Assembly (NCBI GenBank): GCA_032718475.1
Contig: JAUCBJ010006927.1
Coordinates: 1 to 57,129 of the forward strand
Reading direction: 5' to 3'
DNA: 57,129 nucleotides
Source of the DNA: Nemertoderma westbladi
Taxonomy: Eukaryota > Animalia > Xenacoelomorpha
The notes beneath the pieces are model-generated. The model was given only the letters and a program-made list of their open reading frames with translations, was not told the DNA's origin and searched no databases. The position numbers and the translations under genes are program-made. Positions 3,114-49,282 of this stretch are shown in pieces; within the stretch, counting starts at the first letter, position 1; every line of letters starts with the position of its first letter.

Positions 3114-6100
3114 CTATTCATTACCATAACCATAATATGCTGGTGGTTGGACGAGTCTGTCAGAACGAGTATGGGTCGGGTTGGTTGGTTGTTGAGAGGC
3201 AACGGTGGACCATGGCCTCTGTGTTGGTGGATTGTGTGGTGTTTGAGTCACGGGTGTTGGTGGGGCGAGATGTGATGGCAGTGTGGGCTCAAGTTGGGCA
3301 GACGTAGGGGGTGGGGCGGGCGGGCCGCTAGGGGGCGCCTGAATGTGCGGACACACAAAAGGACGCAGTTCTGTCGCACAATTCGCCGGCTCTCTTGGCG
3401 CACGTGGAAGTCGTGGTTGGGGAGGGCCTCGACCATGGTTCCAAGGCCAGTCCAACGAAGGAAAACCTGGAAAACCTGGAAAGCCAGGATCCCCTGCGCG
3501 ATTGCGTCCGAGTCGTGGTTGGCCCTCAGGATGAGTTTCTTCATGGCCTTGACCGCGGCCTCGGCGCGGCCATTGGTGTGCGCCAGGTAGGGGCTGGAGG
3601 GCTCGAGCTGGACCCCCCACTGGTGGAGAAACTGGCGGACTTCGTTGGATACGAATTGGGGGCTGCTGTCGGGGTGGATGATTGTAGGGACAGTGGTGGC
3701 GAGGAAGAGGTGGTGGAGGCAGTCGATGATCGCGCGAGATGTTGTGTCTGAGTTGAGGCGGTACAGCATGGGCCAGTCGGTATACTCATCGGTGACCCCT
3801 AAGTATTTAATGGCGCCGACCTGGAAGATGTCAGCATGGGCGCGCTGGAAGGGCCTCATGGCCTCCGGGTTGTGTTGGAGGGGCTCAGGGGCGTGGGTGG
3901 GGAGGTTGGTCTGGCAGGAACGGCATTTACTGTTTGCTGGATGTCGTTCAGTAGGGATGTCCACCAGACCGACCTGGTCGCACGATCCCGAGTCTTGTTC
4001 AGCCCCTGGTGGGCGGCGTGTAGCTGTTGGGGGGTAGTGCGGCGCAACTCAACGGGGATGTAAAGTTGAGGGCCTTTTAGGATCACCCCCTCGTGGATCA
4101 TCAGGTCGGCGCGGTGGGCGAAGTAGGGCCGGAGTTGGTCGTCAACCACATTGTGTTTTGAGGTCGGCCAACCCTCTTGGATGACGTTGAGGAGGGCGCG
4201 GTAAACTGGGTCGCGTTGGCCGGCCTCCTGAACTTGCTTGATACGCGCGTCCCGGGAATCAAGCGATGGGAGTTGGCCGATGGTGGCGTTCACCATGAAT
4301 TCCTGGTCTGCGTTGTCATCGGGGGTCAGTAGTAAGTCGTCGGGCTGAGGTGCGTGGAGGGGGGCATAGGAAAACGCGTCGGTGACGAGGTGCTTCGAAC
4401 CGTATTGGTGGCATGCGGTGAAGTTGAACCGGGCCAACGCAGTCTTCAACTTCAGGAGGCGATCGTTGGTTACCTGGACCAGGCGGCAGTCATTGAGTAC
4501 TGGGATCAGGGGGTTGCAGTCCATCAGCAGGTCGAAGTGATGGAGGCCGTCGAGGAAGTAGCGACATTTGTGGGCAGCCCAGGCGGCACCCAAGGCCTCG
4601 AGTTCGGCCATCCCGGACCAGTTGGCCTCGTGTTTCGCGAGGTTCCGGGAACCGCACTGAATGGTCATCCACCCATTCCGGGCCAAGTCCCACCGCCTCA
4701 GAAGGAAACCAAGTCCATTCAGGCGGGAGGCATTGGTGAGGAGCTCGGTACGATGATTGGGATGGAACCTGGAGAGGTAGCGTGCGGTGGAGAGTGCGGT
4801 GCGGGTCACCTTGAATGCAGCCTGGTGCTGGGGGAGCCACAACCAAAGCGGAGTAGTTGGAGTTTAGGCTGCGGAGGGGCTCCACCAGTTGGGTGATCTC
4901 GGCGGTGGAGTTGCCGAGTTGCTGAGCCAGGCTGAGGAATGATTGGAGTTCTTTCCGACAAGTCGGGATAGGGAAGCGACGAAGGTCGTCCTTGAGCTCC
5001 AGGTCGATGCGGTGCTGGCAGTGTGAGGTAGCCGCCGAATCTCACCTCAGGAAGGCAGAACTGCACCTTCTTGGTGTTTATCGAGATGTCGGCGACGTCG
5101 CAGGCTGCGAGAACCCGGGCGACGGCTTCCTCGTGGTCTTCCTCGGTGTCGGAATACACCAGGATGTCCTCCACGATCCTGGCGATGTTGGGGATGATGT
5201 GCAGGGCCTTGGCCATTCGGGCGTTGAAAACGTCCGAACTGCCATGCTGTCCCATGGGCATCCTGCGGTACCAGTAGTGACCATGCGGGGTGACGAAGTT
5301 GGTCAACCCCTTCAGCCCATCCAGGACTGAGAAGAATTACGCGGATGGCGGAATCCGAGAGACAACCTGGAACGGGGCTGGGGAGAAGTAGGCAGGTCGG
5401 AAGGTGTGCCTGTTGAGTTGCCGGAGGTCCACCGTGATGCAAACTGAGTTGGGGTCCTTCTTCCGGGTGACAACCATGGGACTGAGCCTTGCGCTCGGGT
5501 CGTTCTCGTTGTCTGCAGGCTCAAGCATCCCCATGGTGACTTGGTCACGGAGTTCCCGGTCGAAGGCTTCCTCCAAGTTGGCGGGGATGGCACGGTTCGC
5601 ATACGAGAAAGTTGTAGAGGCATCCTCGCGGAGTTTATTGTTATTGGGCCGCCTCTCATTACCCAACAGATCCCCGACAGTGAACGTGGGAAACGGGCCG
5701 CGAGTTTATCCCATGTGGTGCTGGTGGTTGTAGCTGCTGGTGCAGTAGGCAGGGCTGGTGGTGGGGTGGTTGGGATGGCAACCGGTTCGGGCGGGGTCGG
5801 CTGTGCTGGCCGGGCCGCAATGGAGGAGCACTGTGGGCGGTGCAGCGTACCTCGGATCGGGCTCTATAGGATCCCGAGGAGGAAACACGCCTTGAAGGAC
5901 AGCAGTGGTTGTTGGAGACCGTCTAGCACCCAGACCTCGGTGGTGCATGCTGTGCGGAGCTCCACACTGGAAGGTGGCTTTGAAGATTCCTTTGAACGAC
6001 CAGCCAGTCCTACTGCCATTAGCGAGTTTGGGGGCCTGCGGGGCAGGGACTGGTTGCCGTAGGTTGGCCACCCGCCCCCGAAGGCGAGAAAAGTACGGAG

Positions 6101-6416
6101 CGGGATTCCAGTTATGTTGGCTCCGGAGTTGGGGAGGAACTGGAGCTTGCGGATGCCGAAGCAGGTGTTGGCGGCAACCTGGAACCCGACTGTGACGGTC
6201 TCCAGCGGCTCCAGCTGCTCCACGAGCTGCTGACACGAGTGGGGCATCAGTCAGTTCGGCGCTGGCGAGGAGGGACCAAACCTTGGCGAGGTTGGTCGAA
6301 GAGAAGTCGGAGTCGCTCTGAGTCGATATCGAATGGTGGGAGTGCGCTGCGGAGGATAAAAGTGAGAGGGTCGCGGTTGTACGCGCTGGGGCGGGTGCGT
6401 ATCCATGTTCAGTCAA
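3114..6416 (-). mobile_element. Degenerate Ty3/Gypsy (Mag-like) pol relic: protease, RT, RNase H and integrase, with many frameshifts
   Basis: Fragmented motifs on the minus strand: PNSGA (protease DSGA); RMPMG and IVEDILV (RT); LLTNASRLNGLG and ELEAL (RNase H); PFQRAHADIF and SSPYLAHTNGRAEAAVK (integrase). No paired LTRs found. Confidence 0.9.
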
Positions 6417-9140
6417 GTACTGCAGTAGGATCAGAAGATAGCAGTGACAGATAGTGGTTTTACAGTTTTAGGCAGTCAGGTGTGGCAGTTTGGGCAGTGA
6501 GTGTCACGGTAGGTTCGAGAACCAAAGCTGTAATATTCTACAGTATGAGACAATGTTGGGGGGGGGGAGGGGGGGGGGGGTTTAAACTCAATCAAAGGAA
6601 AAAATTTAGTAATTATCTAAGGGAATAATTTATTTACAGTAGGCCTACCTAGAGTGCTACAATATCTCAGGTTACAGTACCTACAGTTGTTATACAGTAG
6701 TACAGACAATATGTACTGTATTTAAATTTTCATTTGTACATTTTTGCAGTGAACAAAAAAAATATCAAACTGTCACAAATTAAACTGCATTTACATAAAC
6801 CACCAACCCCAACCCCAACCCCCCGACTCTACCTCAATTTGCAGAAAACTGAAATTATTGGATAGATATATGGTTTCTTATCTTAGAATAATCGATTAGA
6901 AACAGTTTACAATTTATTATTTTTAATAAATTCATAATTATGAATCATCTAATATGGTTGTAAATAAGATCAAACATATAGATTTTAATAATCGAATTAA
7001 TATTTTTTGGTGATCGCTTAAAGTTATATAGGATACTCCTAAGTCTTAATACATTATATATTCTGTTATTATACTCAAACGATTACATCTCAGTTTGTAT
7101 AGAGTATTGTAGGTGTAGGGCCGTAGGGTGTAGGCATAGGGTAAGTAAGGTAGGCTAACCACTCCAGCCCCCCCCCCCCCCCCCTCCCCTCATCTCTCCA
7201 CAGAGTATGCACAAGGAACGCCATGTGATTGGACAACGCGAATTTTTTTTAACCTGGGCAGCTATAAATGCCGCTAAATCCACGCTAAAGTGCCGCTAAG
7301 GAACCGCTAAAAACCGGATAATTATCCCGCTAAAAACGCCGCGATCGCGGGGACCACTTTTACGGCGATTATCCGGATATTATCTTATAAAAGTAGCGGG
7401 ATATTAGCAGGATGGTACATACATCCCGCTATTAGCGTGCTAATCGCTGGATATGTATTTGCGGGGGGGGGGGGGGGGGGGGGGGGTCTCTGCAAGCTAT
7501 CCTAGAAGAATTACAAATAGGAATAATGTATATAAGAATATGTAGACCTATATTGCTAACAATTAAATAGATGCTACATACTAATTAGACAAGTCATGGT
7601 GACATTTACTGTATTTTAATTTCCAATACTGGTGTTTACGAAAAGTTATAATTGGAGGGGGGTGCATGTTGATTGAAAGGCTGTTTGTTACCTTGACGAT
7701 CCAAATGAGAGTTCAAATGGGTCTGTATCTCTATATACAGCCGCGGTGGTCTGCATACTACTGTACTAATCGGGTTTATTGTAGAATTAATTCTAATTGA
7801 TTTAATTTGTAATTTTTTTTTTCAATACTGCTGAAGGAGAGGTAACAGTTAAAGTTCTATTTATATATTATCATTATTTATGAATTTTCTTCTGTTTTGG
7901 GTTCATTTTCTTTCACTTTTAACACTAAATGCAAGACTATATTTACAATGCAGGGCTACATACAGTACTTAAATACAACATTAAACAACAAAATAAATGA
8001 ACTTTATATTTATCAACCCGCAATATTTTTCAAATTCAATCGAATACTAAGGAAATTGGTGTGATCATAATTATACATTTTTTTACTACTGGTCTGGCAG
8101 GATGTTTCCCTTTTTCTTTACTACACAATGTTTACTACTACTTAACCACCTCCATCTCATATTTTGGATTTTGGAATATAATCTCGAGATCTCATTGGAA
8201 CTATCAACTTTATCTCCAGATTCCGAAACCGTTTTTAGCCCGTTTTCTATTTAGATGCAATACCGTAGCGACACCTAGCGGTTAATCGCTGCAAATAAAC
8301 TGTATAAAACATGGTGACCGAACATGCCGTTAGGCGTTCTCGAATTAGCGCACGTCCAGCTAGGTGACGGCTTTGTAGCTAAATCTAAATCGGGGCTTAA
8401 ATTCGACCGAGAATTGCGTGGCTAATTCGGTGGTGACACATCTAGGATCTTTTTAACGGCTTGATAAAGCGAAATAACTAGAAAAATTAGAAACCCGCCC
8501 AGGTCAGTACCGGTAGTAAGAAAACTATGTCGAACTTCCATCATTAGGAATGGAAGTTTTCCGGATATATGATTTATTGAGGAATTTTCCGATAGCCATT
8601 ATTAAGGAATAACTTTTTAATATAGTATAATACAGAATTGAAGCAGTATTATTATTATTTTTATGTATTATTTTATGGCTTTCTAGAACACTGAAATTTA
8701 ATTATAAATTTGCCTCCTGATATAATACTCATGAATTAATTTAAATATCGCTGTACAGCTCTGTTTGTAAATAAATGTGAATTTCTCAATTGCGTTTGAT
8801 AACTGGCAGATTGATTTATATTTCAGTTTTAGTTTATTTCAGTTATTATAGTTATAAACGAAAAATTATTAAAATCGTAAACTTTTCAAGAAAATTTCAG
8901 GTGTTTTCGGACTGTCATCGTTTGTAATATTATGGAAGACCTTGATGGCCTAAGTAAAACAAAAGTGGAACTAAGTGCATGGTACATGATTCTACTGCGG
9001 TATGGGCCTACTGCGGTACATGGCCTATTTGCTTCATAGTATTAGAATCAGGTTATATTTTGTAGAATGTAAATATATGTTATAGTTTAAATTATTCTTT
9101 TTTTTAAACTAATAAATAATTTTTACTAATTTTCTTTCAG

Positions 9141-10106: not shown

Positions 10107-10404
10107 ACTGTATTTCTAGTTGATCCGCTTATAAACACTCGGTTGCGTAGTTCGGACAGCTTCGTGTGGGTTGGGTCATCTTGTCAGTTTAAATGGCCTG
10201 AGATGACCCTACCCATTGGGGTCCAGCTTCGCAAACGAACTCGATCGCGAAAACTGCGGGTCTGTGCAAGTTTCTCCTAGCCTTGAGTTTACGCAAAAGA
10301 TTTCGTTGGCTAGTCAGAAACATTGGTTAACCAGATTCAATGTACAATAATATCTCTATAATTGTTGTTACGCACACATAAAGCAGCGCACAGTAGATTA
10401 TTGT

Positions 10405-10934
10405 TGTTAGCTTATTCAATCCCGCCAACACCCCATAAAGTTATTAGCCGATAAGCAATATTGGGAGCCACGAGATTGGGCAATTAACCAACTCGTGCCA
10501 TCCCAATAAGAATGGGAAGGAAGCACACAATAGAGGGTCAGGGGCCAAACCCCTAACCCAGAGAGAACAGGTGGAGTGAACGGGAATACTCCATGGGGCG
10601 CCAACAAGGGTATTAACCAATAAGAGGGGGGAATGGCATCGATTGAGTAGCAGTAAGGCCACCGTGCAATATAACCAATAACCTATTAATCAGTGATTCA
10701 GTTATCTCAGTGCAGCAGTGCTAGCGTAGGGTACAGCCAATTAGTTTAGTTAGGGGATCACGGGACTTTAGTTACCGTATCCCGCCTTGTACACATTCAC
10801 AATATATCTATATCCTGTAACCTCTTATTATACACCGAACTTCAGAACTCAATATTTCACTCTTATACACGGCGGGGACGCGTGGACTAAATACCACATC
10901 GGATAAATCGGGATCCCTCCTGGATCCCGTCACA
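10405..10934 (+). repeat. 5' LTR (530 bp)
   Basis: Matches 21494-21705 plus 23166-23483 with one substitution seen by eye (ccatgg vs ccacgg). Starts TGTTAG, ends GTCACA. Hairpin cgggatcc/ggatcccg near the 3' end. Confidence 0.95.
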
Positions 10935-11049
10935 GTAACTAAAACGGTGTTGCTTCCCCAGCTAAACTCAGTAACTAAAGACGAGCTGCCGCCCCAGTTA
11001 AACACAAAGAACTCCACCCTAGCTAGCCGAACCATCAGCCACAAACGAG

Positions 11050-14000
11050 ATGAGTGAGTCGGGCGAGACACCACCGCGGACCCCGGACGAAGACCTAACG
11101 ATCCGCGAGGCCGCGACCAAACGATACAGGCCCACGACGCCGGAGCCATCGATAACGGGCGAACCGGAAGCACAGGACGAGGAGGGCCTGGAACCCGAAG
11201 TCGAGCCAAGAGAGAGAGAGAACGAGGTCGAGGGAGAAAGAGACGAGTCGACACGAGACGGAGAACGGCGCGCCGATGTCGCCGGCCAGCTACCGGCCGA
11301 GGGCGACGAGCGGCCCACCGAAACGGCGACGGTGGGGCCGACGGTACGACGCCGGACGCGAAGAGACGGAGGAGAGATTGGTACCGATGTCGCCGGCCAG
11401 CTACAGGCCGAGGGCGACGGACGGCCCACCGGAACGGCGACGGTGGAGCCGCGGGTACGACGTCGAACCCGGAGGGCCGGAGGAGAGGTCGGCGACGAGG
11501 ACGTCGGGGTATCAGAGCGACTTCGACGGGCCTACAACGCGACCCGAAGGATGATAGAGGACGCCAAGAAGGAAGGGGCGAAGGTAGACGAGGTGAGACT
11601 GAGAAAGCGACTAGGTGAGTCGGATAGACACATAAATTACCTAATACGTTTTGGGCAAAGAGAACTAGCCGAAACGAGAGCACACGGGATTGCCGGGGAA
11701 CTGTTTGAACTATGGGAGTGTGGGAGTATGGAACCTAGTGTAGCGTCAGTGTACATAGGGCCATACTTGGTCAATGCCCGGGGAGTAAAACCAGTAGGCT
11801 GGAGGGAACCCGAAGGGGGCGAATCCGAGGTTAACCCCGAGGATTCGGCCTCGTCGGTCGGAGAAAGCTCCGGGAAGCGGGGGGGAATCAGTAGGTCGGG
11901 AAGGCGGGGGAAATCCGTCGTGACCGATAAGTCTGTTACATCCTCCGCGAAAGGAAGAGCGGTGAGAGAGATAGGTGCCGAATATCGCCTCAGCATGGCA
12001 GCGAAAGATCATAGAGAAATCAAGGAACGGCTAGAGGAAGGGAGAGTGCGGTTAGAAAGGGAAACGGCATTGCTTAAAGAAACAGGAGAGAGGGCAGAAA
12101 GGGCTTTGAAAAGCCTAAGGGAGTATGATGAGATAGAGGAAAGGGAGTGTAGGGAGCGTGAGGCGAGAGAGGAAAGGGGGCGCAAGGAGCGTGAGGCAAG
12201 GGAGGAAAGGGAACGCAAGGAGCGTGAGGCGGAACGCAAGGAGCGTGAGGCGAGAATGGAAAAGGAACGCAAGGAGCGTGAGGCGAGAGAGGAAGGGGAA
12301 CGCAAGGAGCGTGAGGCAAGGGAGGAAAGGGAACGCAAGGAGCGTGAGGCAGAACGCAAGGAGCGTGAGGCGAGAGAGGAAAAGGAACGTAAGGAGCGCG
12401 AAGTGAGACGAAGGGAGAGTATTAAGAGTGCTGCAGAGTCGGCCATTAGGGACACCCGGGAGCGTGAGAGAAGAGTGGCAGAGACTGAGGGAGAAAACAA
12501 GAAAATAGAGAGACAACAGAGTGAGTCTGCGGGAGATGAGATTAAACGGGCGCACGAGTTGCAACTCGTGCGAAGAGCGCCGTCTGAAAGCGGGGCCGGC
12601 TCGGGTATTTTTAGGGAGCCGGGGGCCGTAGAAACATTTATTAATACCCCACTGACAGGGACCGCACGACAGACTCAAGACTGGTGCGACCGTATGAGCG
12701 GGGGGGGTAATAATAATATTGGTACTGTAGACGTTGTTGATATTAATAGTACCGTATGGGATAACACTAATCAAACCTTTATTGCAGGAAATACTTTGCC
12801 TAGTGGTAGTAATTTAAATTTAAATCAGAACAATCCCAATACTAATGTAGAAAATAATCCTAATGTTGATGTAGTTACGCAAAATAATTCAAATAATCAA
12901 AATAATAATCCGAACTCGGACCTACAAAATAATTTAAATAACGCAATTACGCAAAATAATTCAAATAATCAAAATAATAATCCGAACTCGGACCTACAAA
13001 ATAATTTAAATAACGCAATTACGCAAAATAATTCGAATAATTTAAATAATGACCCATGCCCGAATTTACAAAATAACTCAGATAACGTAGTCGCGCAGAA
13101 TAATGCAAATGGTTTTGTCTCAAACGAGCAAATTGATTCCGTTTCTAATATAGGTGCTATTAATGCAAACAAGTCGGGCCTACATAACCAGGGAGCAGAG
13201 GGCCTGGTGGGCCACGTAGTTAGTGGACAGGGAGCAGAGGGCCTGGTAGGCCACGTAGTTAGTAGACAGGGAGCAGAGGGCCTGGTAGGCCACGTAGTTA
13301 GTAGACAGGGAGCAGAGGGCCTGGTAGGCCACGTGGTTGGTAGGGAGGGAGTAGAGGGCCTGGTAGGCCACGCAATAGCAGAGGGAGAGGCGGGGGTGAA
13401 CAGACCCGACCGTGGTAGGGTTGATGTGTCGACTAGAGAGGTATATAATAGCGGGGAAAGAGGTAGCGAAGTTAGATGTAGCGAGTGGGGGGGGGGGGGC
13501 TACGAGGGCCCCACAACAGAGAGTTAGCGGCGAAAAGGGGGGGGCAGAGAGTGTCCCACAGCCGTCAGCGGATAATGCGAGGGCCGAACAAGGTAAACCG
13601 CAACAACCGGCGACGGAAAGTAATAGGGGGATTGCGAGTATCCCCAGCGACGTGCGATCGAGCAGAGAAAGACAGGTTGACGTCGCGGGAGGGCAGACGG
13701 AGCGTCGAGCCCGATCAGAGGAGGAAAGAAGAACAGTGGGGCTTAACCGGGAGGTCGACGAGAGATCTCGTGAGCGGGAATATTCCACTGATAGGAGAAG
13801 AGAGGAAGACAGTAGTAGGAGTATCGCCGCAAACGATAGAAGAGCGAGGACGGACAGCGAGCCGTCGGTAGTCGAGATGAGAACAGAGAGTCAGTGGGGT
13901 CGGACTCCGGGAGATTGCCGTCGCCCCGGAGGGATGCGATCCGGTGAGACGCATTACACGGCGAGAGAGGGGTACGCGATGTACCGGTGCGAAGATGAAA

Positions 14001-14464
14001 ACAGTGGAGAGGGGGGTCGAAGAGAAACTTTCCGACGGAATATACCTACCGATCGAGAATACGGTAGCCGCGGGGAGGATTATTCGAGAAGAATAAACTT
14101 CAATCCCGAGCAACACATGCAGACTGTAGGGCATACTGTAGGTCATACTGCACATACCGTAGGCCATACTGAGAGAGGCAATGTAGGCGATAGGATAGCG
14201 CGGACAACGGGATTAAACCCGGAAGTCGCGGAATACATACCGGCGAGTAGGCCAGAAGCTGATAGGCCTATACCGGTACCAGCACAGCAGTATGACTACA
14301 GCGTGCAGGGACATAACATATACCCAGGGGAAGGGGGAATTATTGCGGATAGGTGCATGGGCCCCAACATATTAACATCAACCCCATTCCCAAACATACC
14401 GGTGTGGGGGGGGGACAGGGTGACATTCCCCCATCACAATATCAACAATATACCCCGATGGTAG
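11050..14464 (+). CDS. Long low-complexity N-terminal Gag extension (ORFs 11050-13527 and 13412-14464, joined across a poly-G tract)
   Basis: BEL-like PEDSASS motif, ERKEREAR coiled-coil repeats, Asn-rich tract and 13-aa GAEGLVGHVVSRQ repeats. The frame changes at G-runs near 13490 and 14410. Confidence 0.65.
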
Positions 14465-16338
14465 CAAGAACAACGAAACCCTTGGACGAAAACAGGTCGT
14501 GTGATACAGACATATGGAGGGGGCCGCTACCCCCGATGACATATCCGAGTCAGAGAATATCAAGAAATAGGACGGACGAACCGCACCAGACAGGGGAAAC
14601 TATACAGCACCCGTCGAATCCATTAGAAGCGCAGGCAATGGGGATGGCCACGTTGATCGATGCGTTGAAAACGAGGATCGAATTACCACCCGTGGAACCG
14701 TTCAAATTCGATGGGAGCAGGCCGGAAGAATACTTACAGTTTCGGCGAATGTATAGTAACGAAATACTAACAAAAAACTTGACGCAGGCGGAGTGCCTAA
14801 AATATCTACAAGTGTACACGGGAGGCCCAGCATACGATATCGTGAGGCAATACCAAGGAATAGAGGGCGGCTTCACGACAGCATGGCGGGCACTGGATAG
14901 GGAATACGGGCACCCGGCCAAGATCATCAGGCAGACGCTGAGAGGCATAACATCGGGTGGCCTACAGGATAACCCCGTTAGCATTAAGACGTTTGCTAAC
15001 AAAGTCGAGAAGGCGCTGATCGTGCTGAAGACGCTAGACGCGCCATACGAGCTCAACGCGTCCAATAACATCACCACGATAGCGCAGGCACTACCGAGTT
15101 GGCTGCGCAACAAATGGAGGAAGATCGCTTTCTCCACCCGAGACAAGAAGGGTGCGGAACCAGGTTTAGAAGAAATGTCAAACTTCTTAAATTACGAGGC
15201 CGAACTAATAACGGACCCAGTCTATAGTGAAGATAGCCTGGGAAAGGGACCAAAGACAGATCATTACAGGCCCAAACCAGAGCACAATACATCGAACGCG
15301 TTACCGAGACTCAGGCAATCATTGCCATATGCAGCGACGCAGGGGACTGCAAGTCCACAGACAAGCGAAGATAAAACAACATCAAGGGACGGACAGGGGA
15401 ACAATAACAACATGAATAAACATAACCTCAGTACGTCCAGTAGGCCAAATCCAGTCAATAAGAATAGTAGGGACTTTGGTACAAATATAACTGCGATACG
15501 CAACGCATTGTATAAAGAGGGCTACGACCCAAAGAGCAAATGCCAGTTACACGCAAATGCGCTTCATAAAACCATGAACTGCAGGTACTGGCAGGCGCTA
15601 CCGAGGCAAGACCAGATAGATTACGCGTCGAGCAATAAAATCTGCTCGCGATGTGTAAAGAGTGGACACAAGGCCAGGGAATGCCAAGAGAAGCCGGTCA
15701 AGTTTGGCCAAAGGAGAGGCCAGACGATGGCAACGAGCACAGTAGGGGCGAAGAGGAGAGGAACAGTGCTACTTGGAGTAGTACCAGTACGAGTGATCGG
15801 GGAAGGCAATCGATCAGTAACAACACTAATGCTGGTTGATAGTGGAGCTGCCTTCACATTAGTTGAGGAATGGGTAGCCGAAGAAATAGGGTTGAGAACG
15901 AGGCCAAGCAGGATGGCGGTGACAACCATCTCTAGCAAAGACGAGATCCTAGAGATGAGGACAGGACGGTGCGCAATTGCAGCAGTGGCACCAGGATGCG
16001 ATTATGGGGCAACAATCGACCCCATCCAAGTAATAGAGTCAATTAACATCAATGCCAGGCGGCCAACCAACATCGAGGTCGAGCAATACAAATTCCTGGA
16101 TAACATTGACTTCTCAATCCCAGACGTGGACGTTAGGAAGGTATCCATCATAGTAGGCATGGACTGCCCGACGGCCCACGAAAGAATGCAAACGGTCTTC
16201 GGCGAAGACAAGCAGAGCGACCCGGTGGCCATATTAACACCATTCGGGTGGACACTGACAGAGGCCCAATTAAGAGTAATATACCATTCCATGTGTCTGA
16301 GAGTTCAGGATGCATGGTGCCAGGAACTGACGAGATAG
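14353..16338 (+). CDS. BEL/Pao Gag core, zinc knuckles and aspartic protease
   Basis: LPPVEPFKFDG..EEYLQF..YLQVYTGGPA..AWRALDREYG is DUF1759-like. Knuckles CQLHANALHKTMNC and CSRCVKSGHKAREC; protease LVDSGA; BEL-typical PVAILTPFGW. Confidence 0.88.
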   Translation: MHGPQHININPIPKHTGVGGGQGDIPPSQYQQYTPMVARTTKPLDENRSCDTDIWRGPLPPMTYPSQRISRNRTDEPHQTGETIQHPSNPLEAQAMGMATLIDALKTRIELPPVEPFKFDGSRPEEYLQFRRMYSNEILTKNLTQAECLKYLQVYTGGPAYDIVRQYQGIEGGFTTAWRALDREYGHPAKIIRQTLRGITSGGLQDNPVSIKTFANKVEKALIVLKTLDAPYELNASNNITTIAQALPSWLRNKWRKIAFSTRDKKGAEPGLEEMSNFLNYEAELITDPVYSEDSLGKGPKTDHYRPKPEHNTSNALPRLRQSLPYAATQGTASPQTSEDKTTSRDGQGNNNNMNKHNLSTSSRPNPVNKNSRDFGTNITAIRNALYKEGYDPKSKCQLHANALHKTMNCRYWQALPRQDQIDYASSNKICSRCVKSGHKARECQEKPVKFGQRRGQTMATSTVGAKRRGTVLLGVVPVRVIGEGNRSVTTLMLVDSGAAFTLVEEWVAEEIGLRTRPSRMAVTTISSKDEILEMRTGRCAIAAVAPGCDYGATIDPIQVIESININARRPTNIEVEQYKFLDNIDFSIPDVDVRKVSIIVGMDCPTAHERMQTVFGEDKQSDPVAILTPFGWTLTEAQLRVIYHSMCLRVQDAWCQELTR

Positions 16339-17141
16339 AGGAGAGGCCAGAGATGGGCAATAGTGGTAGACAGCTAAAAGAAGAAGCAACACCAAGAGAG
16401 TGGGCGGAGGAGAATGGTATGGATGCAGAAGATCTAGAGACGATGGGTTGGAACAAGGGTCCCAGCAAGTATCGGTATGGAGATGGAGAGGAGCGGACGG
16501 TGGAGTGTCGGGAGGACAAACCGGAGAAGTGTCCGGTGGAGTGTCCAGAGGAGCGTCCGGAAGAGACGCCGGTCCGGTTGAGAGGCATACCGACAAGGGG
16601 GAAGCCGAGTAAGAATACAAGATGGAAAGGGAGAAGATGTGAGACGATGAGACCAGGGGCAGAGAAGCCCATGAATAAACATATGGTGGACAAAGGAGCC
16701 GGGAGAGTAGGAGGCGTGCAGCGTACGCACGCGGAACTGACAGAGTGCGAGGGGGCATTACATGCGCAGACATCGTGTATACCGAAGGACGAACGGGGGT
16801 CGTTGAAGCCTTTAATGCCAGCACACATATTAAGGGGGAGGCCAGCAGAGGTGACATCTAAGATTAAGGAGAAGAACAGGGGCGGCATTATACCGCCGGG
16901 TGACACGTTGAAGGGTGGCACTTTGCCGCCAAGGGACGACCACGAGATCAGAAACATAAATAACAGACAGCATTTGCCAAAACAGGAGAAAAGACCACCT
17001 ATCGAATTGACAAGAAGAGCGGAGCGAAGAATTAGAGAACCTATAGGGGGGCAGTGGGAGAGTTGCCTGCTGGAGGAATCACCCCTTGGGTCGCTGAGTT
17101 GTCCAACAGGTTGGACTGGGATGGAAGAGTTAGATCCGTAA
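16248..17141 (+). CDS. Unknown tail of about 290 aa, probably continuing gag-pro after a 2-nt slip (GWTLT-GPI); no RT motifs
   Basis: Restoring GWTLTGPI needs a frame change near 16261. No YxDD or other pol motif follows. Confidence 0.45.
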   Translation: MDTDRGPIKSNIPFHVSESSGCMVPGTDEIEERPEMGNSGRQLKEEATPREWAEENGMDAEDLETMGWNKGPSKYRYGDGEERTVECREDKPEKCPVECPEERPEETPVRLRGIPTRGKPSKNTRWKGRRCETMRPGAEKPMNKHMVDKGAGRVGGVQRTHAELTECEGALHAQTSCIPKDERGSLKPLMPAHILRGRPAEVTSKIKEKNRGGIIPPGDTLKGGTLPPRDDHEIRNINNRQHLPKQEKRPPIELTRRAERRIREPIGGQWESCLLEESPLGSLSCPTGWTGMEELDP

Positions 17142-17296
17142 AAGGTGCGGGCAGAGGTGTTACCTGTCTCTTAGAAGGAGCACCTTAGAGCGGAGTTAGT
17201 GTGGAGTTTAGTCGTCCAAGTTTTGGACTGAGGGGGGTGGGATTGAGGGCGAGACGCCCTTCCCACACAAAATAAAAATAAAATAAAATAAAATAA

Positions 17297-17733
17297 GAGT
17301 TAGTCAGTTAGTTAGTAGGTACGTAGTACCAATAGTTAGAGTTAGAGTTAGAGGGTACGTAGTACCGATAGTTAGAGAGTTAGCAGGTACGTAGTACCTA
17401 GTTAGAGTTAGAGTTAGAGGGTACGTAGTACCGATAGTTAGAGTTAGTAGGTACGTAATACCTAGTCAGAGTTAGAGTTAGAGGGTAGGTAGTACCGATA
17501 GAGTTAGAGTTAGTAGGTACGTAGTACCTAGTTAGAGTTAGAGTTAGAGGGTACGTAGTACCGATAGTTAGAGTTAGTAGGTACGTAGTACCTAGTTAGA
17601 GTTAGAGTTAGAGGGTACGTAGTACCGATAGTTAGAGAGTTAGTAGGTACGTAGTACCTAGTTAGAGTTAGAGTTAGTAGGTACGTGGTACCTAGCTAGA
17701 GTTAGAGTTAGGGGGTACGTAGTACCATTAGTT
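17297..17733 (+). repeat. Tandem array of about 13 GGTAC-GTA-GTACC hairpins spaced by GTTAGA repeats
   Basis: ggtacgtagtacc recurs about every 30-36 bp in alternating ..ccta and ..ccgata units, with a dimer period near 64 bp. Confidence 0.9.
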
Positions 17734-18241
17734 AGAGAGAGAGAGTAAGAGGTAAAAGGGGTAAAATAGGATATAGATATTAGTTAGTAGTAAGTAGAGT
17801 TAGTAGCGAGAGGGGGGCATATGAGTGCAGCTGGATAAATCGTGTGGCCACACGACGCATACTGCTGTACTGCATAGGCCCACTGAGTAGGCCAGAATAT
17901 GGATCAGAGAGAGAATAGAATAAATCCATAGGCAGTAGTAAGTAGTAGGACAGTAGAATCAAAGCAAAATAAAATAAATAAATAGAATAGGGCTAAAAAT
18001 CGGAAAATAGTGGTAACACAAGGAAAGTCGTTCTAGAACATAATAAAAGTAACGGACAGAAATTGTAAATTAGGCTGATTTACTAGCTCCGAAATTAATT
18101 AGGTAAAACTTAGCTTGAAAGGCGCAATTAAGTAGAAAGTAGGCCATTATCGAACTGTACGAAACATCCTAAATACTTCACTCATCTGTATTGCGCCTTG
18201 GTAAGGCACCACCCTACAGGTGAGCGAGTGTAGTGTTCGGA

Positions 18242-20773
18242 ATGGCGAGTAAGCTGATCAGGAAGAGAAAGGCGGAGTCAGGAGGAAAGGAAATATTGGT
18301 GGATTTCACCGAAAGACACCCGGAGGAGAAGACGAGAGGATACTACGAGAGGTTGGAAAGGGGTCACGCGGCACGAGCGCTGCAGGATCACTTCCGGGAG
18401 GCGCACGAACAGCGGTTGGTCGGGACCTACGGGACGCCGTCGCTGGACAACGCGATCTTCCAACACTTCCACTACGTGGTGAAAGGAGACGAGGCGAAGT
18501 TCGGGATTCCGAAGTATCCGAGGGAATCGCCGAGGAAGGACTGGAAAAGATTCATAGAGTCCGTCAACAGAGGAGGATATATGATCCTAGATGACGAGGG
18601 AACCGTGGAAGACGAAGCGGGTTCGAGACGAGGAACGGCAGGGTCGGCCAGGACCATACTCTTGCATTTGGCAGCGCCAAATGGGGACATCTTCTTATTC
18701 GACCTAGGGACGTATGGGAAGAAGGACGGGCCGAAATTAGACCGACTGCCGAAAGCGGTACAAGTCTTAGTAAGAGAGAAGTCGACGACGAAAGTGGGAT
18801 CGGCGATTCGCGAGGACGCGGAGAGGATCATCGGTCCGGACGCCACCAACCTCCTGGATATGCAGAAAGTCTTTATGGCTATGACGGCACCGGATGGATT
18901 GGGGGTGGTCGAGAACTCAGGCCAATGCGGGGCGGTGGCGATGGGCCAACTATTGGGGCTCGTATGCCACAAACCAATGGATTGGGGGAAGTTTAGGGAA
19001 GAATACGGAGCAGAACTAGCGAACTCGCTGAAGTGGGGAGCGAGACCGGGAAAGCAGGAGGTATATCAGTTTCGCAGAGGAGCGATAAAGGTATATCAGA
19101 AGCGATATATCCTGCAGGAGGACTGGATGATGATAAGTTTGCTTAACTTATTCATGACCGTAGTTATCGAAAGGGAACCAGGGGCATTTCTGTTATCGGG
19201 ATCACCCCTAAGCTACAGGAGAGCCTTTAAGACGGCCTTTGACGGTCTGGTAGACCACCCGGGGCTGAAGGGCGAGTCGGTGTACTACAACAGCCGACAT
19301 CTGGTAGATGGGGAGACAGATACACCGTATCAGAGATGGGAGCAGCTAGAGATGGATAGACGGGAAGCAAAGCGACTGGAAGAAGTCTCTAGACGGGAGA
19401 GGATAGAAGCAGAGGAGAGGGAAGAGGAGGCCAGAACACAGAGTTATGGCTTCGAGGAACAGGCGGGTCTAGACGAGCTTCATTGGACTTCGTCAGGGAG
19501 TTCGGGGGAGTCTCTAGGACGAGAATTGGGATGGACGGTGGGATCGCCGAAACAGTCGACGTTGGGGTTGCAAACGATGCCCATACCAGCGGGCGCCGAG
19601 GGCGACCAACCGCCAAGGAAGTTAAGGGAGCTAGAGGGATGGAGAGCTACGGGCGAGAGCCAAGGCGGGAAGGGACATAGTGGATCCATCGGGATACCGG
19701 GATTGGAGACACTACCAGAGGAGGACGACGACGACGAGTTCGGAGAGATGCCGCCCATCGAAAGGATAGGCCACTCGGACACAGACTGGGTTGGCGGAAG
19801 GGTGGTGACGGCCAGTGGGGCGAGGGCCTTCTGGAACAGATCCGGCAAGCGGACCTGGGTGCACGAGGAGCCGGCGATGGATTTCGCGGGGAGCACCATC
19901 AGGTTGGGCGAGCAACCGGGAACGGCACCACGGATAGTATTCGGGGAGACGATGCCCGAGAGGGGCGGAGAGATAGACGTAAACAGGGAGAGCAACGTAG
20001 AGAAGTTCGCCTACCAGCGACTCCATAGACCGCGGAGATCGCTTGGGACGAAGGACGAGGTGGGACGGGAGACATTGGTACTCGGCTGCGACTACTGTGG
20101 GAGACAGACCCATCAGGAAAGCAGCTGCCTATACCGGTTCCAACGGGGAACCTTTTGTCTCTACTGTAGAGAACCAAGTCACAGGATGGGGGCGTGTCCA
20201 CGGTTGCATAACCGATGTCCAAAGTGCCACTTTCGGGGACACTACGGACGCGAGTGCGACTGGATGAGCGACGAGGAGAAGTTCACGAGGTTCGAGGAGT
20301 GGGCCGACGTCGGGGCCATGACGCGCCAGCGCATGAAGGCCCAAGAGTTCAAGTGGGGTTTCTTCCTCATAAACCAGGAGACCCACATGGAAATCATAAA
20401 GCGAAGGTTACCGTTTACCTATCAAGAGGTAGCTACGGCGGCATCGTTCGCCGGAGTTATGAACACGCAACGGTACCTGGACAGGTGGACACCAGAGAAC
20501 CGGAGGGAGTTTAGGGATTTCTTGGCGGAACACGTACCAAAGGCAATGAAAATGATCCTATGGGACGCCACACGAGGGAGACAACCAGGCCATTCTGAGG
20601 GGCCACCGGCGAAGCGGTATCGGGCATTAATAACACCAGCGCCCAAGGAGCCGACGACCGGGATCAGCAAGGAAGTGGCGGCAAAGGTCCGGAAGCAGAA
20701 AGCGGATGATGCCAGAGGAGCGGTGATAACCAAGAAACGGGCCAGGGAAGAGGACGTGAGGAGGAACAGATAG
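18242..20773 (+). CDS. 843-aa protein: DEDDy (WRN/EXD/RNase D-like) 3'-5' exonuclease domain plus three CCHC zinc knuckles
   Basis: ExoI ILDDEG (near 18590); LLHLAA..IFLFDL..LPKAVQVLV..KVGSAIRED (ExoII); LLDMQ; QKRYILQED (ExoIII-like). Knuckles CDYCGRQTHQESSC, CLYCREPSHRMGAC and CPKCHFRGHYGREC at 20087-20257. Uninterrupted ORF with basic NLS-like termini. Confidence 0.8.
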   Translation: MASKLIRKRKAESGGKEILVDFTERHPEEKTRGYYERLERGHAARALQDHFREAHEQRLVGTYGTPSLDNAIFQHFHYVVKGDEAKFGIPKYPRESPRKDWKRFIESVNRGGYMILDDEGTVEDEAGSRRGTAGSARTILLHLAAPNGDIFLFDLGTYGKKDGPKLDRLPKAVQVLVREKSTTKVGSAIREDAERIIGPDATNLLDMQKVFMAMTAPDGLGVVENSGQCGAVAMGQLLGLVCHKPMDWGKFREEYGAELANSLKWGARPGKQEVYQFRRGAIKVYQKRYILQEDWMMISLLNLFMTVVIEREPGAFLLSGSPLSYRRAFKTAFDGLVDHPGLKGESVYYNSRHLVDGETDTPYQRWEQLEMDRREAKRLEEVSRRERIEAEEREEEARTQSYGFEEQAGLDELHWTSSGSSGESLGRELGWTVGSPKQSTLGLQTMPIPAGAEGDQPPRKLRELEGWRATGESQGGKGHSGSIGIPGLETLPEEDDDDEFGEMPPIERIGHSDTDWVGGRVVTASGARAFWNRSGKRTWVHEEPAMDFAGSTIRLGEQPGTAPRIVFGETMPERGGEIDVNRESNVEKFAYQRLHRPRRSLGTKDEVGRETLVLGCDYCGRQTHQESSCLYRFQRGTFCLYCREPSHRMGACPRLHNRCPKCHFRGHYGRECDWMSDEEKFTRFEEWADVGAMTRQRMKAQEFKWGFFLINQETHMEIIKRRLPFTYQEVATAASFAGVMNTQRYLDRWTPENRREFRDFLAEHVPKAMKMILWDATRGRQPGHSEGPPAKRYRALITPAPKEPTTGISKEVAAKVRKQKADDARGAVITKKRAREEDVRRNR

Positions 20774-21455
20774 GTTCCCGGAGACGAGGGAACGAGGGAG
20801 TGAGACTGAGACTGGAAAGTGGTGCGCCTGGAAGGCGCCGCATGGAACGTACGAACTATTAAATACAAATTTATTTAATTAATGCAAATAACCATATAAG
20901 TGCAATTCGTATGTACGTACGTAGTAATTAGCAGTAAAATACATACGTTTGGAGTAAGTACTATAGTCATACAACCTTTCTCAACTAGCTAGTGGGACTG
21001 GGGGGAATAACTGACTATGGCACTATGGACGAGACAACTGACAATTTCATACTTCTCGAGTGCGACGGCACGAGAGGGGGGGGAGGTTCGTCAGGAGAGA
21101 TAAAACAGCAGAAGTGAGGTTGAGGGACGCAGTGATAGAGTGGAGTGCAAAGAGAGTGCGGACGCGATTCTAGAGTGTGGGGGGGGAGAAGAAGAGGCTG
21201 AGTAGGGACGAGGAGGTCCGAGTGTGAGAGAGTTAGGGTGAGAGTGAAGGTGAGATAGGGCGAAAGTGTTGGGGAAACAAAAATCGCGTGAAGAGGTGAG
21301 CGCGATCGGCCCGACATGAGGCGCCAGGCACACAGGGTAGCGTTATCATACCCATAGGGGGCGGCCTGGAAAGCCGGCTCCTAGAGAAAAGAATTCCACC
21401 CCACACCCGATACTAGATCGGGATCCAGCGGGATTGTAACGCACTTTTTTGGTTG

Positions 21456-21493
21456 ATGCTATCTTCTTACCGGGAAGATAGCATGGGGGGGAG
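21456..21493 (+). promoter_or_regulatory. 11-bp hairpin followed by the polypurine tract of the LTR element
   Basis: atgctatcttc-ttaccgg-gaagatagcat, then gggggggag directly before the TGT of the 3' LTR. Confidence 0.8.
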
Positions 21494-23483
21494 TGTTAGC
21501 TTATTCAATCCCGCCAACACCCCATAAAGTTATTAGCCGATAAGCAATATTGGGAGCCACGAGATTGGGCAATTAACCAACTCGTGCCATCCCAATAAGA
21601 ATGGGAAGGAAGCACACAATAGAGGGTCAGGGGCCAAACCCCTAACCCAGAGAGAACAGGTGGAGTGAACGGGAATACTCCACGGGGCGCCAACAAGGGT
21701 ATTAACCCTTTAAGTACCGATACCACAAATTTCTGAACATATGGTGCGCCGACCAAAATACCACCGGCAACAAATGGTTTTCACAGCATATATTTTGACA
21801 TAGAATCGGCAATATTGTACAACAATTATATACAATAGATATATAATATATTTTATATATATATATATATATTTTTTATATATATATATAATATAATATA
21901 ATATATATTTTCGTAAAACAATGTAAACAATTATTGAAGATTTATTAATAATACGTTTGATAACATTATTATATTACAAACCGACATTTTTGTGCCATTC
22001 ACCAGCACAACCAATACATAAACAGGGTTTATATGGACAATCTGGGCAATAACACCCTGTAAGTACATTTTTACCTTTTGCATAGCAAACATGACAACGA
22101 TATCTAGGCTTATGAACCTTACTAGTTGGGGGTAGAAGTTTTATTGAATGCAGCGTCGAATTGTCGGAATCTTGTGAAGTAGATTGTTGGTCTGTCAGGT
22201 AAGATGTTGCAGTACGCTTCAATGGGCTCGCACACTTGATACCAGTCAACCACAGGACTGCTTTCTTTATAAATGGAACCAATCGTTCTTTGCTGTTCTT
22301 TTCCCGTTTATAAAGAAGAAATGCATTGATTAGTAAACGCATCATAAAACTGAAACCAATTTTTTTAAACCATGCGTGGCTTTTTCTAACCGGATTGTAA
22401 TACGCAATAAGTTGGTCTTGTACATCTACGCCTCCCATTTTCTTATTGTATTGGTCAATGGTCGTTGGCTTATCATAATCGATAGTATCACCTCCCCGAA
22501 CAATGCGAGATTTAGGAGTCAGATCAGCGTCGTCGACAGTCGATAAAATCGATTCCTCCTACCCACCCAACCGTTCCAGTAAAAGGAATAAAGTGGTTCG
22601 TAGCATAGGCGTCGGTTCCTGCCTCCACAAAGTTCCACGTCCAAGTACTGGTGCTGGTATTACTACTGTAGAATCGCTACTGTCACTCTCGCTTCCACTG
22701 CTACTCTCATCATCGTCGGTTTCACCTTTATCTCCTCCGGATTCGCTTCCATCGCCACCAGTTTCACTTTCGTCCGATAGCACCTCATCCTCACTTTCCC
22801 GGTGAAAAACATAATACTTGACAGGGTTCTTCCTCCTAACAGGCCTACTCATCCTAACTAGGCCTACTTAAAAAATTAATGAAAACACCCCACAATTCAG
22901 CAATTACTGAAGTAGAAGAGTGTCAGTACTGCAGTTGTAGGTGTGTTCAGGTGTTGTACCGGTTCATGAGCAGGAACATGACATCCAGACTTTATTTAGG
23001 TATCAAATGAAAGCCTAATGCGCGGGCTATTCGAAATGAGTGATTATTTATGCGCTGTACCTACCTATGGACCCGTAGTAACACATTAATGTCATGGATC
23101 AACATCTGATCCATGGCGCACTATGTCATGGATCACCTGTTGATCCATGGGACTCAAAGGGTTAACCAATAAGAGGGGGGAATGGCATCGATTGAGTAGC
23201 AGTAAGGCCACCGTGCAATATAACCAATAACCTATTAATCAGTGATTCAGTTATCTCAGTGCAGCAGTGCTAGCGTAGGGTACAGCCAATTAGTTTAGTT
23301 AGGGGATCACGGGACTTTAGTTACCGTATCCCGCCTTGTACACATTCACAATATATCTATATCCTGTAACCTCTTATTATACACCGAACTTCAGAACTCA
23401 ATATTTCACTCTTATACACGGCGGGGACGCGTGGACTAAATACCACATCGGATAAATCGGGATCCCTCCTGGATCCCGTCACA
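21494..23483 (+). repeat. 3' LTR interrupted by a piggyBac insertion
   Basis: The 212-bp and 318-bp segments reconstitute the 530-bp LTR around a duplicated TTAA. Confidence 0.95.
21706..23161 (-). mobile_element. Internally deleted piggyBac transposon (1456 bp)
   Basis: TTAA TSD at 21702-21705 and 23162-23165; imperfect TIRs ccctttaagtacc/gggactcaaaggg. The acidic N-terminus (22559-22852) is joined to the C-terminus MGGVDVQDQ..WFKK and a Cys-rich domain (21974-22438). Most of the catalytic core is missing. Confidence 0.92.
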
Positions 23484-23599
23484 ATTGTAATGTACTACAA
23501 TAGTGGGAGCGGCGTTGCCTATCTACGTATCAGACCCATAACAGATTGCCGATATCAATGTGGCACGAAAAACTTTCAGTTTCACATCTGTACAAATTG

Positions 23600-23880
23600 T
23601 TAAATACATTTATATCGTGTTTCTCATCGCCGATGTAAATTCCAAGTTAAATATTATATAGCCGCCTCCGCTTTACGGGGCATTTCGTTCGCCATGAAGA
23701 CCAGCCAGTGCATAATCTTGTGCTTTGGCAGCCCCATGGAGAAAATAAGCATGGTTTACTAGACGCCAATGGCTTTCTTGAAACACCTCTTAAAGGACAC
23801 TTTCCTTGAAGATGCGGATGATCTTGCAAATGTGATGTGTGATAGGGAGTTGTGGCGGCGCAATTTTATCGACAAGCCGG
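23600..23880 (+). mobile_element. RTE-like LINE 3' end relic
   Basis: Translates RLRFTGHFVRHEDQPVHNLVLWQPHG...LEDADDLANVMCDRELWRR; related to 52045-52195. Confidence 0.7.
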
Positions 23881-27395: not shown

Positions 27396-28392
27396 TACAG
27401 ATCCTTGCTAAGGAAATACCACTATCCTTAGCAAGTGATAATTAGGGGTCAACTCCATATTGACCCCAAACACCGGGTTCATAAGAGGCCACATTTCACA
27501 AAATCAGCCGTCAGAAACACTCGGCCTTGTAGATGGCAGCCCCCTGGCCCGCTATCTTGGCTCAGTTTCTCAGCAGTCGGGCTGGACTGTTCCTATACTC
27601 TCCTTTACTTCGCCTAGTATCGGTGGGGCTTAGGAGCGTGGCTAGTTCCCGCTGAGAACCGAGCATGTGGCCAACCAGCCCTCTAGCTAAAACTTGCGCA
27701 CTCTGCCCGCAGACTCATTGGAGCGACCTTTGGACAAACCTAAGTCGGAGGATAAAGTAGCAGCTAACTTTCGGCGTCCAATTCGGTCGCACCCCCGTTT
27801 GGACACAGAAGGTAACCTGGTGTTTGCACTATTGCCAAGTTTATTACAACTGTTTTAGAAACCTATTTTCATTTTAGACCTGTTAGACTGTTAGACATTT
27901 TAGACTGTTAGTATTTAAGTCCAGAAACGACTAAAATACTATATTTTGTGTATTATACTTTTGGTTACAATTATATGGATTGTATAATTTTTCGATGTTA
28001 TACTTTGGTTCCTAACGGACCCAAACCACCCCTCATCCGGTTTCTGTTTTTCCCTCTTCCCGGAGGTTTTTCTATGGTGTTACGTACCGTAGGTAGTATG
28101 ATAATAAGTAAGACAGGGCAATAACCAGCAATATAATGTCTATATTATTGTTATTTATAGATAGGCATAAAGTTATTGGAATATAAGCAATAATCTTATA
28201 TATGTAATCCGGTTCATTACGGTCAGACGGTACCAACCTACCGGTACTGCAATATTACCCTAGGCTAATAAGTAGTTAATTATATATCTAAATATATTCA
28301 GTTTAAATTTACCGCCCTTTTATATTAAGGGGCTAGGCCCTATAATTGATCCTATACCAAGTCCTTCTTTTTTTTTTTTTTTTTTTAATGAG

Positions 28393-33050: not shown

Positions 33051-33176
33051 TATGTAACTTACTTTTTGGACTGACCTGGTTTATTTTTGTATAGATTCAG
33101 AAATTATTATTTCCCCTCAATATGTTAGTTATGTTGTTATCGCCTTAGAATTTCATCTTCTAACTGAGGTCAACAA

Positions 33177-49268: not shown

Positions 49269-49282
49269 ATATTTCCTAACAG

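Follow-up and report, generated by a model that had tools for sequence, protein, structure and literature searches.

A pol-less BEL/Pao-derived retrotransposon of Nemertoderma westbladi that keeps gag, protease and a DEDDy exonuclease/zinc-knuckle gene

The BEL/Pao retrotransposons are summarised in the Belpaoviridae profile (PMC8742986) as elements of 4.2-10 kb with long terminal repeats (LTRs) of 0.2-1.2 kb and an 18-nt tRNA primer site, and the only third genes named there are env-like. Pol-less gag-protease LTR elements are already known in other superfamilies, as passages of PMC9744471 and PMC5408684 describe. In wheat, RLG_Sabrina_SA and RLG_WHAM (helper RLG_Wilma) are semi-autonomous LTR families that encode only Gag and protease (PMC9744471), and in bdelloid rotifers the non-autonomous TelKA2n is without most of pol and retains its ORF3, which is an env rather than a DEDDy gene (PMC5408684). 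In the bdelloid LTR elements Juno and Vesta, an RNase D-like DEDDy open reading frame (ORF), ORF3, lies downstream of pol (PMC5408684), and DEDDy third ORFs of rotifers also appear in passages of PMC6431247 and PMC5718144. Here we describe an element in contig JAUCBJ010006927.1 of the Nemertoderma westbladi assembly GCA_032718475.1, of which positions 1 to 57,129 of the forward strand, 57,129 nt in all, make up the window analysed. It is a BEL/Pao LTR retrotransposon on the + strand at 10405-23483, without pol but with gag, protease and a DEDDy/knuckle gene, and we think it probable that it represents a long-lived semi-autonomous lineage mobilised by a helper.

The element lies between two matching copies of ATTGT, a 5-bp target-site duplication (TSD) at 10400-10404 and 23484-23488. 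Its 5′ LTR (10405-10934; this and the other parts of the element are on the + strand unless noted) is 530 nt long, runs from TG to CA and has a GGGATCC hairpin at its end, and the 3′ LTR is present in two parts, at 21494-21705 (a 214-nt alignment at 99.5%) and 23162-23483 (322 nt identical to the 5′ LTR). Over all 530 nt the two LTRs differ by one mismatch. Between the two parts lies a TTAA-flanked, piggyBac-type insertion of 1,456 nt on the − strand (21706-23161) with a DDE_Tnp_1_7 match and a partial transposase at 21974-22558; this piece, itself a low-copy deletion derivative, is later than the BEL insertion and foreign to the BEL element. The first-pass annotation thus placed the boundaries of the element correctly but included the piggyBac piece, without which the element measures 11.6 kb, with an interior of 10,559 nt (10935-21493). 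The LTR length, the TG..CA ends and the TSD are those of BEL/Pao elements, as is a polypurine tract of about 10 nt (21484-21493), which is G-rich, has GAG before TGT and is of the type seen in autonomous relatives. Just before the tract, 21405-21483 contain a strong hairpin and a 10-nt copy of the LTR-end hairpin arm. Empty sites are present in two short-read runs of two samples, with contigs joining 10399 to 23484 (five shared letters) in run X3 and 10404 to 23499 in run X2. Because contigs of two samples join the flanks across the empty site, the insertion is likely polymorphic and young, and the recent insertion proposed on first inspection from the TSD and the LTRs holds.

No reverse transcriptase (RT), RNase H or integrase core is found by Pfam in the 116 six-frame ORFs of at least 40 amino acids (aa), and profiles built from 24 BEL Pol proteins recover the protease only, with no RT, RNase H or integrase core; the initial impression that these domains are missing is therefore upheld by both scans, with no cryptic RT. 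The RT, RNase H (Peptidase_A17 region) and integrase that BEL/Pao elements carry in gypsy order are not there, and because they are absent we regard the element as a BEL/Pao derivative and not as an autonomous member. What follows the protease is, from profile and motif evidence, a decayed pol remnant (16137-17185) made up of ORF D (334 aa) and a short tail in another frame. It comprises a post-protease linker-like part, 12-nt repeats, an integrase C-terminal trace at 16791-16850 and a DG.VR motif at 17120-17143. This remainder of pol is about 0.9 kb long, against 3,408-3,780 nt from the end of the protease to the end of pol in all 23 complete relatives, and about 2.6 kb is missing. The integrase-tail block, one of eight segment profiles tested, scores 5.0 bits at 16791-16850, a value reached by none of 300 shuffles in each of two nulls, and DG.VR lies 120 codons after it, compared with 109-116 codons in 17 complete Pols. 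The linker, RT, RNase H, IN-N, IN-core and DUF5641 profiles find nothing above shuffles in 16270-17300, and blastp of ORF D against the metagenome loci described below (at least 120) and against P0077 gives nothing significant. This evidence for the remnant as a long-decayed end of pol is weak but consistent in position. An N.RP[LI] motif kept by all 24 complete Pols is gone from the remnant while the LTRs are nearly identical, and the decay of pol would therefore predate the insertion. It had been proposed that pol was replaced by the exonuclease gene; this does not stand, as a pol remnant survives, with the exonuclease ORF 1.1 kb further on, in the position it normally takes in autonomous relatives. 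On this reading of the sequence, pol is deleted, not replaced.

The gag-protease region of this copy, as assembled, is spread over four overlapping frames, ORFs A-D. ORF A (11050-13527, 825 aa from the first ATG) is the low-complexity, repeat-rich N-terminal part of Gag, has no Pfam family and is homologous to both of the sister gag fragments discussed below. ORF B (13400-14464, 354 aa) is likely the continuation of Gag in another frame, and ORF C (14353-16338, 661 aa) carries a DUF1759 capsid, a zinc knuckle and an aspartic protease with DSG. With Pfam matches to DUF1759 (3e-11) and Asp_protease_2 (2e-5) and a BEL Pol profile match at 8e-17, ORF C has the Gag and protease of a BEL element. 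Two of the frame breaks fall at G runs (near 13487, at ORF B, and near 14406, at ORF C), and the lengths of these runs differ in both sister gag fragments; the third break, near 16260, coincides with a small indel between sister contigs. The breaks may be either real or sequence errors, and those at the G runs suggest local sequence errors. The earlier description of the interior as gag-protease, a hairpin array and an intact DEDDy/CCHC ORF is accurate in that all three are present, but the gag-protease is in four frames and the pol remnant has to be added. The hairpin array is at 17298-17743, where it was reported, and is a tandem array of GGTAC-GTA-GTACC hairpin units with AGTTAG spacers; an Rfam scan of 10300-23600, the array included, gives no match.

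Two gag relatives elsewhere in the window bear out the suggestion that the gag lineage is multi-copy. Sister fragment A (39781-41871, − strand) is 77-79% identical to the element at the nucleotide level, and fragment B (47052-49269, + strand) has 122 mismatches in 1790 aligned nt (about 93% nucleotide identity, and 95% aa identity over residues 1-253 of ORF C). Because both are LTR-less and internally deleted, they say nothing on the layout of the element. Relative to fragment B there are 32 synonymous and 9 non-synonymous codons, and 36 of 43 changes are at third positions, by which measure gag is under purifying selection, as judged for gag from this one sister fragment. The coding repeats of gag, of 39 nt and 60 nt, at 13189-13372 and 47247-47521, come with a GGCC hairpin and carry a GTAGTTAGTAG motif resembling that of the non-coding hairpin array. 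Fragment A lies between two inverted arms (38162-39568 and 45589-46980) of about 1.4 kb that are 97% alike and contain internal 162-163-nt repeats; fragment B is directly beside them. The closest database match to the gag-protease has 26% identity and carries Peptidase_A17 and RVT_1 (one of 7,997 near-length candidates for ORF C). A word-index search of longer proteins finds no ORF C match among 5,166 candidates, a search of viral contigs with ORF C returns 0 loci, and in a protease tree the element forms a long, weakly placed branch.

ORF E (18242-20773) is unbroken over 843 aa and consists of a DEDDy-fold 3′-5′ exonuclease domain (about aa 60-352), a 200-aa disordered linker, three Cys/His knuckles (aa 616-672) and a conserved, family-specific helical tail, which confirms the intact DEDDy/CCHC ORF seen in the first-pass annotation. 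It has no Pfam match of its own, but a profile of 35 family members matches EXD2 (6e-11), trypanosome RNase D, Egalitarian and WRN. Relatives number 75 among 1.84 billion representative proteins; as Pfam detects just three of the 35 profile members, the family is easy to overlook. A word-index protein search finds no ORF E match among 7,992 near-length candidates, a protein search of metagenomes gives 0 of 541 stretches and the knuckle pattern is found at 0 loci in viral contigs. The structural model has pLDDT values mostly of 80-95 in the two folded parts and is of the DnaQ-like fold (Z 14.3 with Nibbler, 7jw6, at an rmsd of 3.6 over 207 aligned residues). Egalitarian bound to localisation hairpins, including I-factor RNA, gives Z 12.5-13.6. 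Because the DEDDy families are all tied at Z 12-14, the fold does not pick the function of ORF E. The catalytic-motif residues are D117, E119, D192, Y289 and E293, with E293 in place of the last Asp, a Glu that is likewise present in 14 of 51 aligned domains; with its catalytic acids kept, ORF E is a predicted 3′-5′ exonuclease. Since the gene starts with an ATG of its own, which follows the remnant at 1.1 kb and also lies behind the hairpin array, the protein is likely made from its own shorter RNA. Splice-site-like motifs, acceptor or donor, can be seen by eye at 18200-18225, just upstream of the start. In sister contigs the joints 20251-20822 and 20058-20805 would shorten the end of ORF E, although their anchors are short and the joints may be false, and contigs of run X5, which may be RNA, cover parts of ORF E with one difference in 339 nt and one in 260 nt.

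A DNA pattern for the knuckle motif recovers at least 120 metagenome loci, 80 of them with flanks and mostly from a few related projects; as the loci were found through the exonuclease-knuckle motif, elements that are without the exonuclease gene cannot appear among them. Among the flanked loci listed, pol domains lie directly upstream of the exonuclease gene in 48 of 80, and all seven pol segments are in order ahead of it in 23 of 80. When at least 5 kb of upstream sequence is available, RT, RNase H and integrase core precede the exonuclease gene in 25 of 29 listed loci; among the remaining four, the L043 sequence starts within pol, L071 carries a deletion of RT/RNase H sequence (without the end of RT and without RNase H), L010 has no trace of pol, and L017 is an old LTR-flanked element with gag, integrase tail and exonuclease gene and with everything from protease to integrase core missing. 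Peptidase_A17 of the Pao family is detected in 26 of 29 scanned ORFs (from 45 chosen by length or interest), and relatives carry Peptidase_A17, RVT_1, integrase and DUF5641 in one ORF. The exonuclease-knuckle and RT trees agree (Mantel rho 0.75, reached in 0 of 2000 shuffles, over 23 loci whose related rows are not independent), and ORF E is on a long branch of the exonuclease-knuckle tree, without a close relative. From its position behind a complete pol in relatives and from the agreement of the trees, the exonuclease/knuckle gene is, as far as sequence comparison goes, an old and standing third gene of autonomous BEL elements, simply kept here.

In 14 of the 48 listed loci (L006, L016, L024, L026, L029, L033, L055, L056, L058, L062, L065, L067, L074 and L076) the exonuclease ORF is in frame behind a single stop of pol, which is always TGA and is followed by C in 12; the context is CAATTA in three of the 14 and CGG in another three. 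Going by known stop-context rules, readthrough is likely to give a Gag-Pol-exonuclease fusion in these loci, and such an in-frame link would carry the exonuclease protein into the particle. The D-x-E of the first catalytic motif is kept in just two of the 14, against 24 of 36 others. In L004, L037, L043, L044 and L078 the exonuclease ORF is extended at its N terminus by about 900 aa and overlaps a second long frame; L004, L044 and L078 were considered as pol-less and rejected, being like L037 and L043, where pol lies further upstream. L017 (5187-10931) is a second, older pol-less BEL element, with the order LTR, gag, integrase tail/DUF5641, exonuclease ORF, LTR. It and the Nemertoderma element keep a nearly identical integrase-tail stretch, which with two examples may hint at a signal in cis there.

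Short-read contigs cover the interior of the element completely, and in three runs their depths add up to about 7,000-200,000, compared with 53-241 on the piggyBac piece; we rejected summed contig depth as a measure of copy number because the sums are inflated. Contigs that match the remnant with 0-4 differences have depths of 305-1054, against 126-261 for the flank. More diverged contigs, 14-18% apart from the element, cross 16551-16863 without pol (28 differences over the 199 nt of 16551-16749, 44 over the roughly 240 nt of 16623-16863), and the listed joints over the remnant are deletions, for example 16417-16732. Though short and not full-length elements, these contigs point to a pol-less remnant that is shared among copies. 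No RT-like sequence is present among 24 of the 316 loose ends. Third positions account for 10 of 29 changes in the remnant and for 36 of 43 in gag (p = 4e-5), where the 29 remnant changes derive from 40 of 121 rows after two outside the frame, eight seen in a single run and one duplicate were dropped. The summed depth of ORF E equals that of gag-protease. A loose end at 16752 in run X6 was considered as a transcription start on account of its likeness to a template-switch adapter and was set aside, as the genomic sequence there resembles the adapter end.

At the expected position of the primer site, no tRNA-type site with TGG is present in the first bases behind the 5′ LTR, and nothing there corresponds to the 18-nt tRNA site of the family. 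Of 27 relatives examined, 16 have a TGG-type site; the contigs of most others apparently start within coding sequence. The leader at this position (10935-11003) consists of two 36-nt units, of which the first, at 10935-10968, is predicted to pair with an LTR segment at 10743-10775 that is complementary to the leader at both of its ends and is a candidate self-primer; position 10775 meets the first base behind the LTR. The fold, with a second predicted arm, has a z of −4.1 over a segment that was chosen after the fact. Its perfect core is 9 nt, which 54 of 20,000 shuffled LTRs also hold, and a variant leader in three runs (joint 10943 to 11067) keeps just these 9 nt. The pairing region also has an alternative R/U5 fold, and the Tf1-type rule, which in the relevant passage of PMC6317226 asks for 10 nt or more of LTR complement with its start 0-5 nt behind the LTR, is missed by one base. 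Self-priming is reported for Tf1/Sushi, Tcn1 and TAR, and for no BEL element in the passages of PMC4600332 and PMC6317226. Priming by self-pairing rather than by a tRNA is offered here as a tentative suggestion, which we would hold to be on the doubtful side.

Taken as a semi-autonomous element, this BEL derivative probably moves as follows. Its RNA would be made from the 5′ LTR and packed in particles of the family Gag, matured by the family protease, with the gag of this copy being frame-broken as assembled. RT/RNase H and integrase would come from a co-expressed autonomous BEL element with matching LTR ends, and we infer this supply in trans from the TSD, from LTRs that are nearly identical and from a decay of pol that is older. 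The element may prime its own copying by self-pairing. The ORF E protein, likely from the shorter RNA, probably acts on the RNA or cDNA of the element in the particle or on the way to it, binding through its knuckles and exonuclease fold and trimming 3′ ends where, as here, the catalytic acids are kept. The first-pass annotation had spoken of a satellite or bipartite element that borrows Pol in trans; with no RT and a recent insertion, Pol is likely borrowed, but nothing supports the word bipartite and autonomous relatives carry a nuclease copy of their own. With gag and protease kept, RT and integrase absent and selection seen for gag, the element resembles the semi-autonomous Sabrina_SA and WHAM, and that it forms a long-lived lineage of this kind seems to us rather likely from the contig sequences. 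Several observations weigh against this reading. The reading frame of gag is broken three times in this copy; the trace of the integrase tail is weak, at E 6.2 when the whole-Pol profile is used, DG.VR alone scores below background and the six-frame ORFs give no Pfam DUF5641 match in the remnant. The third motif of ORF E has Glu for Asp, and D-x-E of the first motif is missing in 24 of 50 relatives, so the protein may matter for something other than nuclease activity. The searches turned up no close autonomous relative, and the branches are long in both the protease and exonuclease-knuckle trees. Neither a second full-length pol-less copy nor a helper is seen in the window and the short-read contigs. 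Summed depth drops about tenfold at 16256, the end of the protease, which fits a faster divergence of the remnant but also most copies continuing into an intact pol unlike the remnant, and with loose ends covered for 24 of 316 the contig data are compatible with such intact-pol copies.

An alternative is that this is a dead copy, or a small recent deletion subfamily, of an autonomous gag-pol-exonuclease BEL element, with the pol-less form not maintained. Complete relatives have exactly that gene order, deletion copies exist among them (L071 without the end of RT and RNase H, L017 without protease to integrase core), depth falls tenfold behind the protease and gag is broken in this copy. Against this, motifs that all 24 complete Pols retain are gone from the remnant, although the LTRs have a single difference; contigs of subfamilies that diverge by 14-18% run across the remnant with no pol and with several more deletions in it; and the variation of the remnant is without third-position bias. 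We think this alternative unlikely. Far less support can be given to an assembly artefact in which pol was lost through the collapse or wrong joining of a repeat. The G-run frame breaks do suggest local errors in the sequence, but the TSD matches, an empty allele joins the flanks, and short-read contigs of other samples tile the element and cross the remnant, making this explanation very improbable indeed.

In a two-part system the helper would have lost gag or the exonuclease gene and would depend on this element. This would agree with the purifying selection on gag, with the retention of the DSG protease and ORF E and with the equal summed depths of ORF E and gag-protease, and Cereba/Quinta of wheat is a proposed precedent for a non-autonomous partner that gives Gag (described in a passage of PMC11302176). 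However, pol domains are directly upstream of the exonuclease gene in 48 of 80 listed loci, in a motif-based search that misses exonuclease-free helpers, and the helper is unseen; we consider mutual dependence improbable. A better case, if one we still judge to be somewhat unlikely, can be made for ORF E having its main job outside the particle, either as an Egalitarian-like adaptor that would bind the hairpin array and bring the RNA to germ cells or as a Nibbler-like trimmer that would blunt piRNA silencing. The top structural neighbours include Nibbler (Z 14.3) and Egalitarian with localisation hairpins (Z 12.5-13.6), many relatives are predicted pseudo-nucleases, the hairpin array is just upstream of ORF E, and a silencing role has been raised for the rotifer DEDDy ORFs (in a passage of PMC5408684). 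The tied DEDDy Z values, though, do not favour any one function, and a place in the particle is suggested by the 14 of 48 listed relatives in which a single TGA separates the gene, in frame, from pol. A broader proposal combines several of these elements: an old BEL satellite that has given up Pol, primes itself and trades capsid, protease and an active DEDDy-knuckle enzyme with its helper. The enzyme would belong to an undescribed accessory family that has co-diverged with the BEL RT; in one clade it would be a dead RNA-binding fusion read through from pol, elsewhere a free-standing catalytic protein, and its targets would be the ends of retroelement RNA or host small RNAs. As a whole we regard this as speculative and as unlikely to be right in all its parts.

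Other elements are also present in the window. A young Ty3/gypsy element on the − strand (28094-33454) has LTRs that are 99% alike and a gag-pol with RT and RNase H, with the integrase in a second frame; because it is not a BEL element it is an unlikely helper. A broken gypsy-type pol is recognisable by eye at 3100-6500 on the − strand, and a segment that carries a fibrinogen C-domain ORF occurs three times, at 211-1853, 35447-37270 and 49278-51493.

The element shares with the Belpaoviridae (PMC8742986) its LTR size, polypurine tract, Gag with capsid and knuckle, protease and 5-bp TSD, and differs in having no RT, RNase H or integrase core, a length of 11.6 kb, no tRNA site and a DEDDy/knuckle third gene. 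Like Tf1 and Tj1, as passages of PMC4600332 and PMC6317226 describe them, it has sequence behind the 5′ LTR that is complementary to an LTR-internal segment and has no tRNA site, but the perfect match is 9 nt here and 10 nt in the rule (PMC6317226); self-priming, if true, would be new for BEL. With Sabrina_SA, WHAM and RLG_Quinta it has in common the pol-less LTR layout and a proposed autonomous partner that moves them (passages of PMC9744471 and PMC11302176). The wheat elements, which endure as families, are Ty3/gypsy elements of plants for which the partner has been identified and the tRNA primer site is shared (PMC9744471, same passages), whereas this is an animal BEL element that also keeps an 843-aa enzyme-like accessory gene. 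Since the pol-less layout alone has plant and rotifer precedents, the more valuable result is the family of BEL accessory genes: a DEDDy/zinc-knuckle gene that is widespread and appears to co-diverge with BEL elements, for which PMC8742986 names only env-like third genes. We found no DEDDy ORF in a BEL element in the literature, although Repbase, GyDB, subscription journals and supplements were outside the search and may hold such cases, and the passages of PMC3118150 that we consulted do not mention exonuclease or DEDD. Trypanosoma brucei RNase D, Nibbler/mut-7, EXD2 and Egalitarian (7c42/7c45, 7jw6, 6k17 and 9rw3) share the DEDDy fold at Z 12.5-14.3, and the C-terminal CCHC knuckles of the T. 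brucei enzyme, which match the ORF E profile, are a further likeness; these are host enzymes with 10-18% identity, and ORF E differs from them in its linker and helical tail. The bdelloid elements are similar in having a DEDDy ORF behind pol, and in the pol-deficient TelKA2n keeping ORF3, and differ in that their lineages (Juno, Vesta, TelKA, Mag) are none of them called BEL and no triple knuckle is described in the cited passages of PMC5408684, the likeness being one of description. That pol was dropped here and the exonuclease gene kept suggests that an RNA gains from carrying the gene, and with catalytic and predicted-dead forms, either free or behind a likely readthrough stop, the question raised by the rotifer elements, why a retrotransposon has a 3′-5′ exonuclease, becomes testable by comparison.

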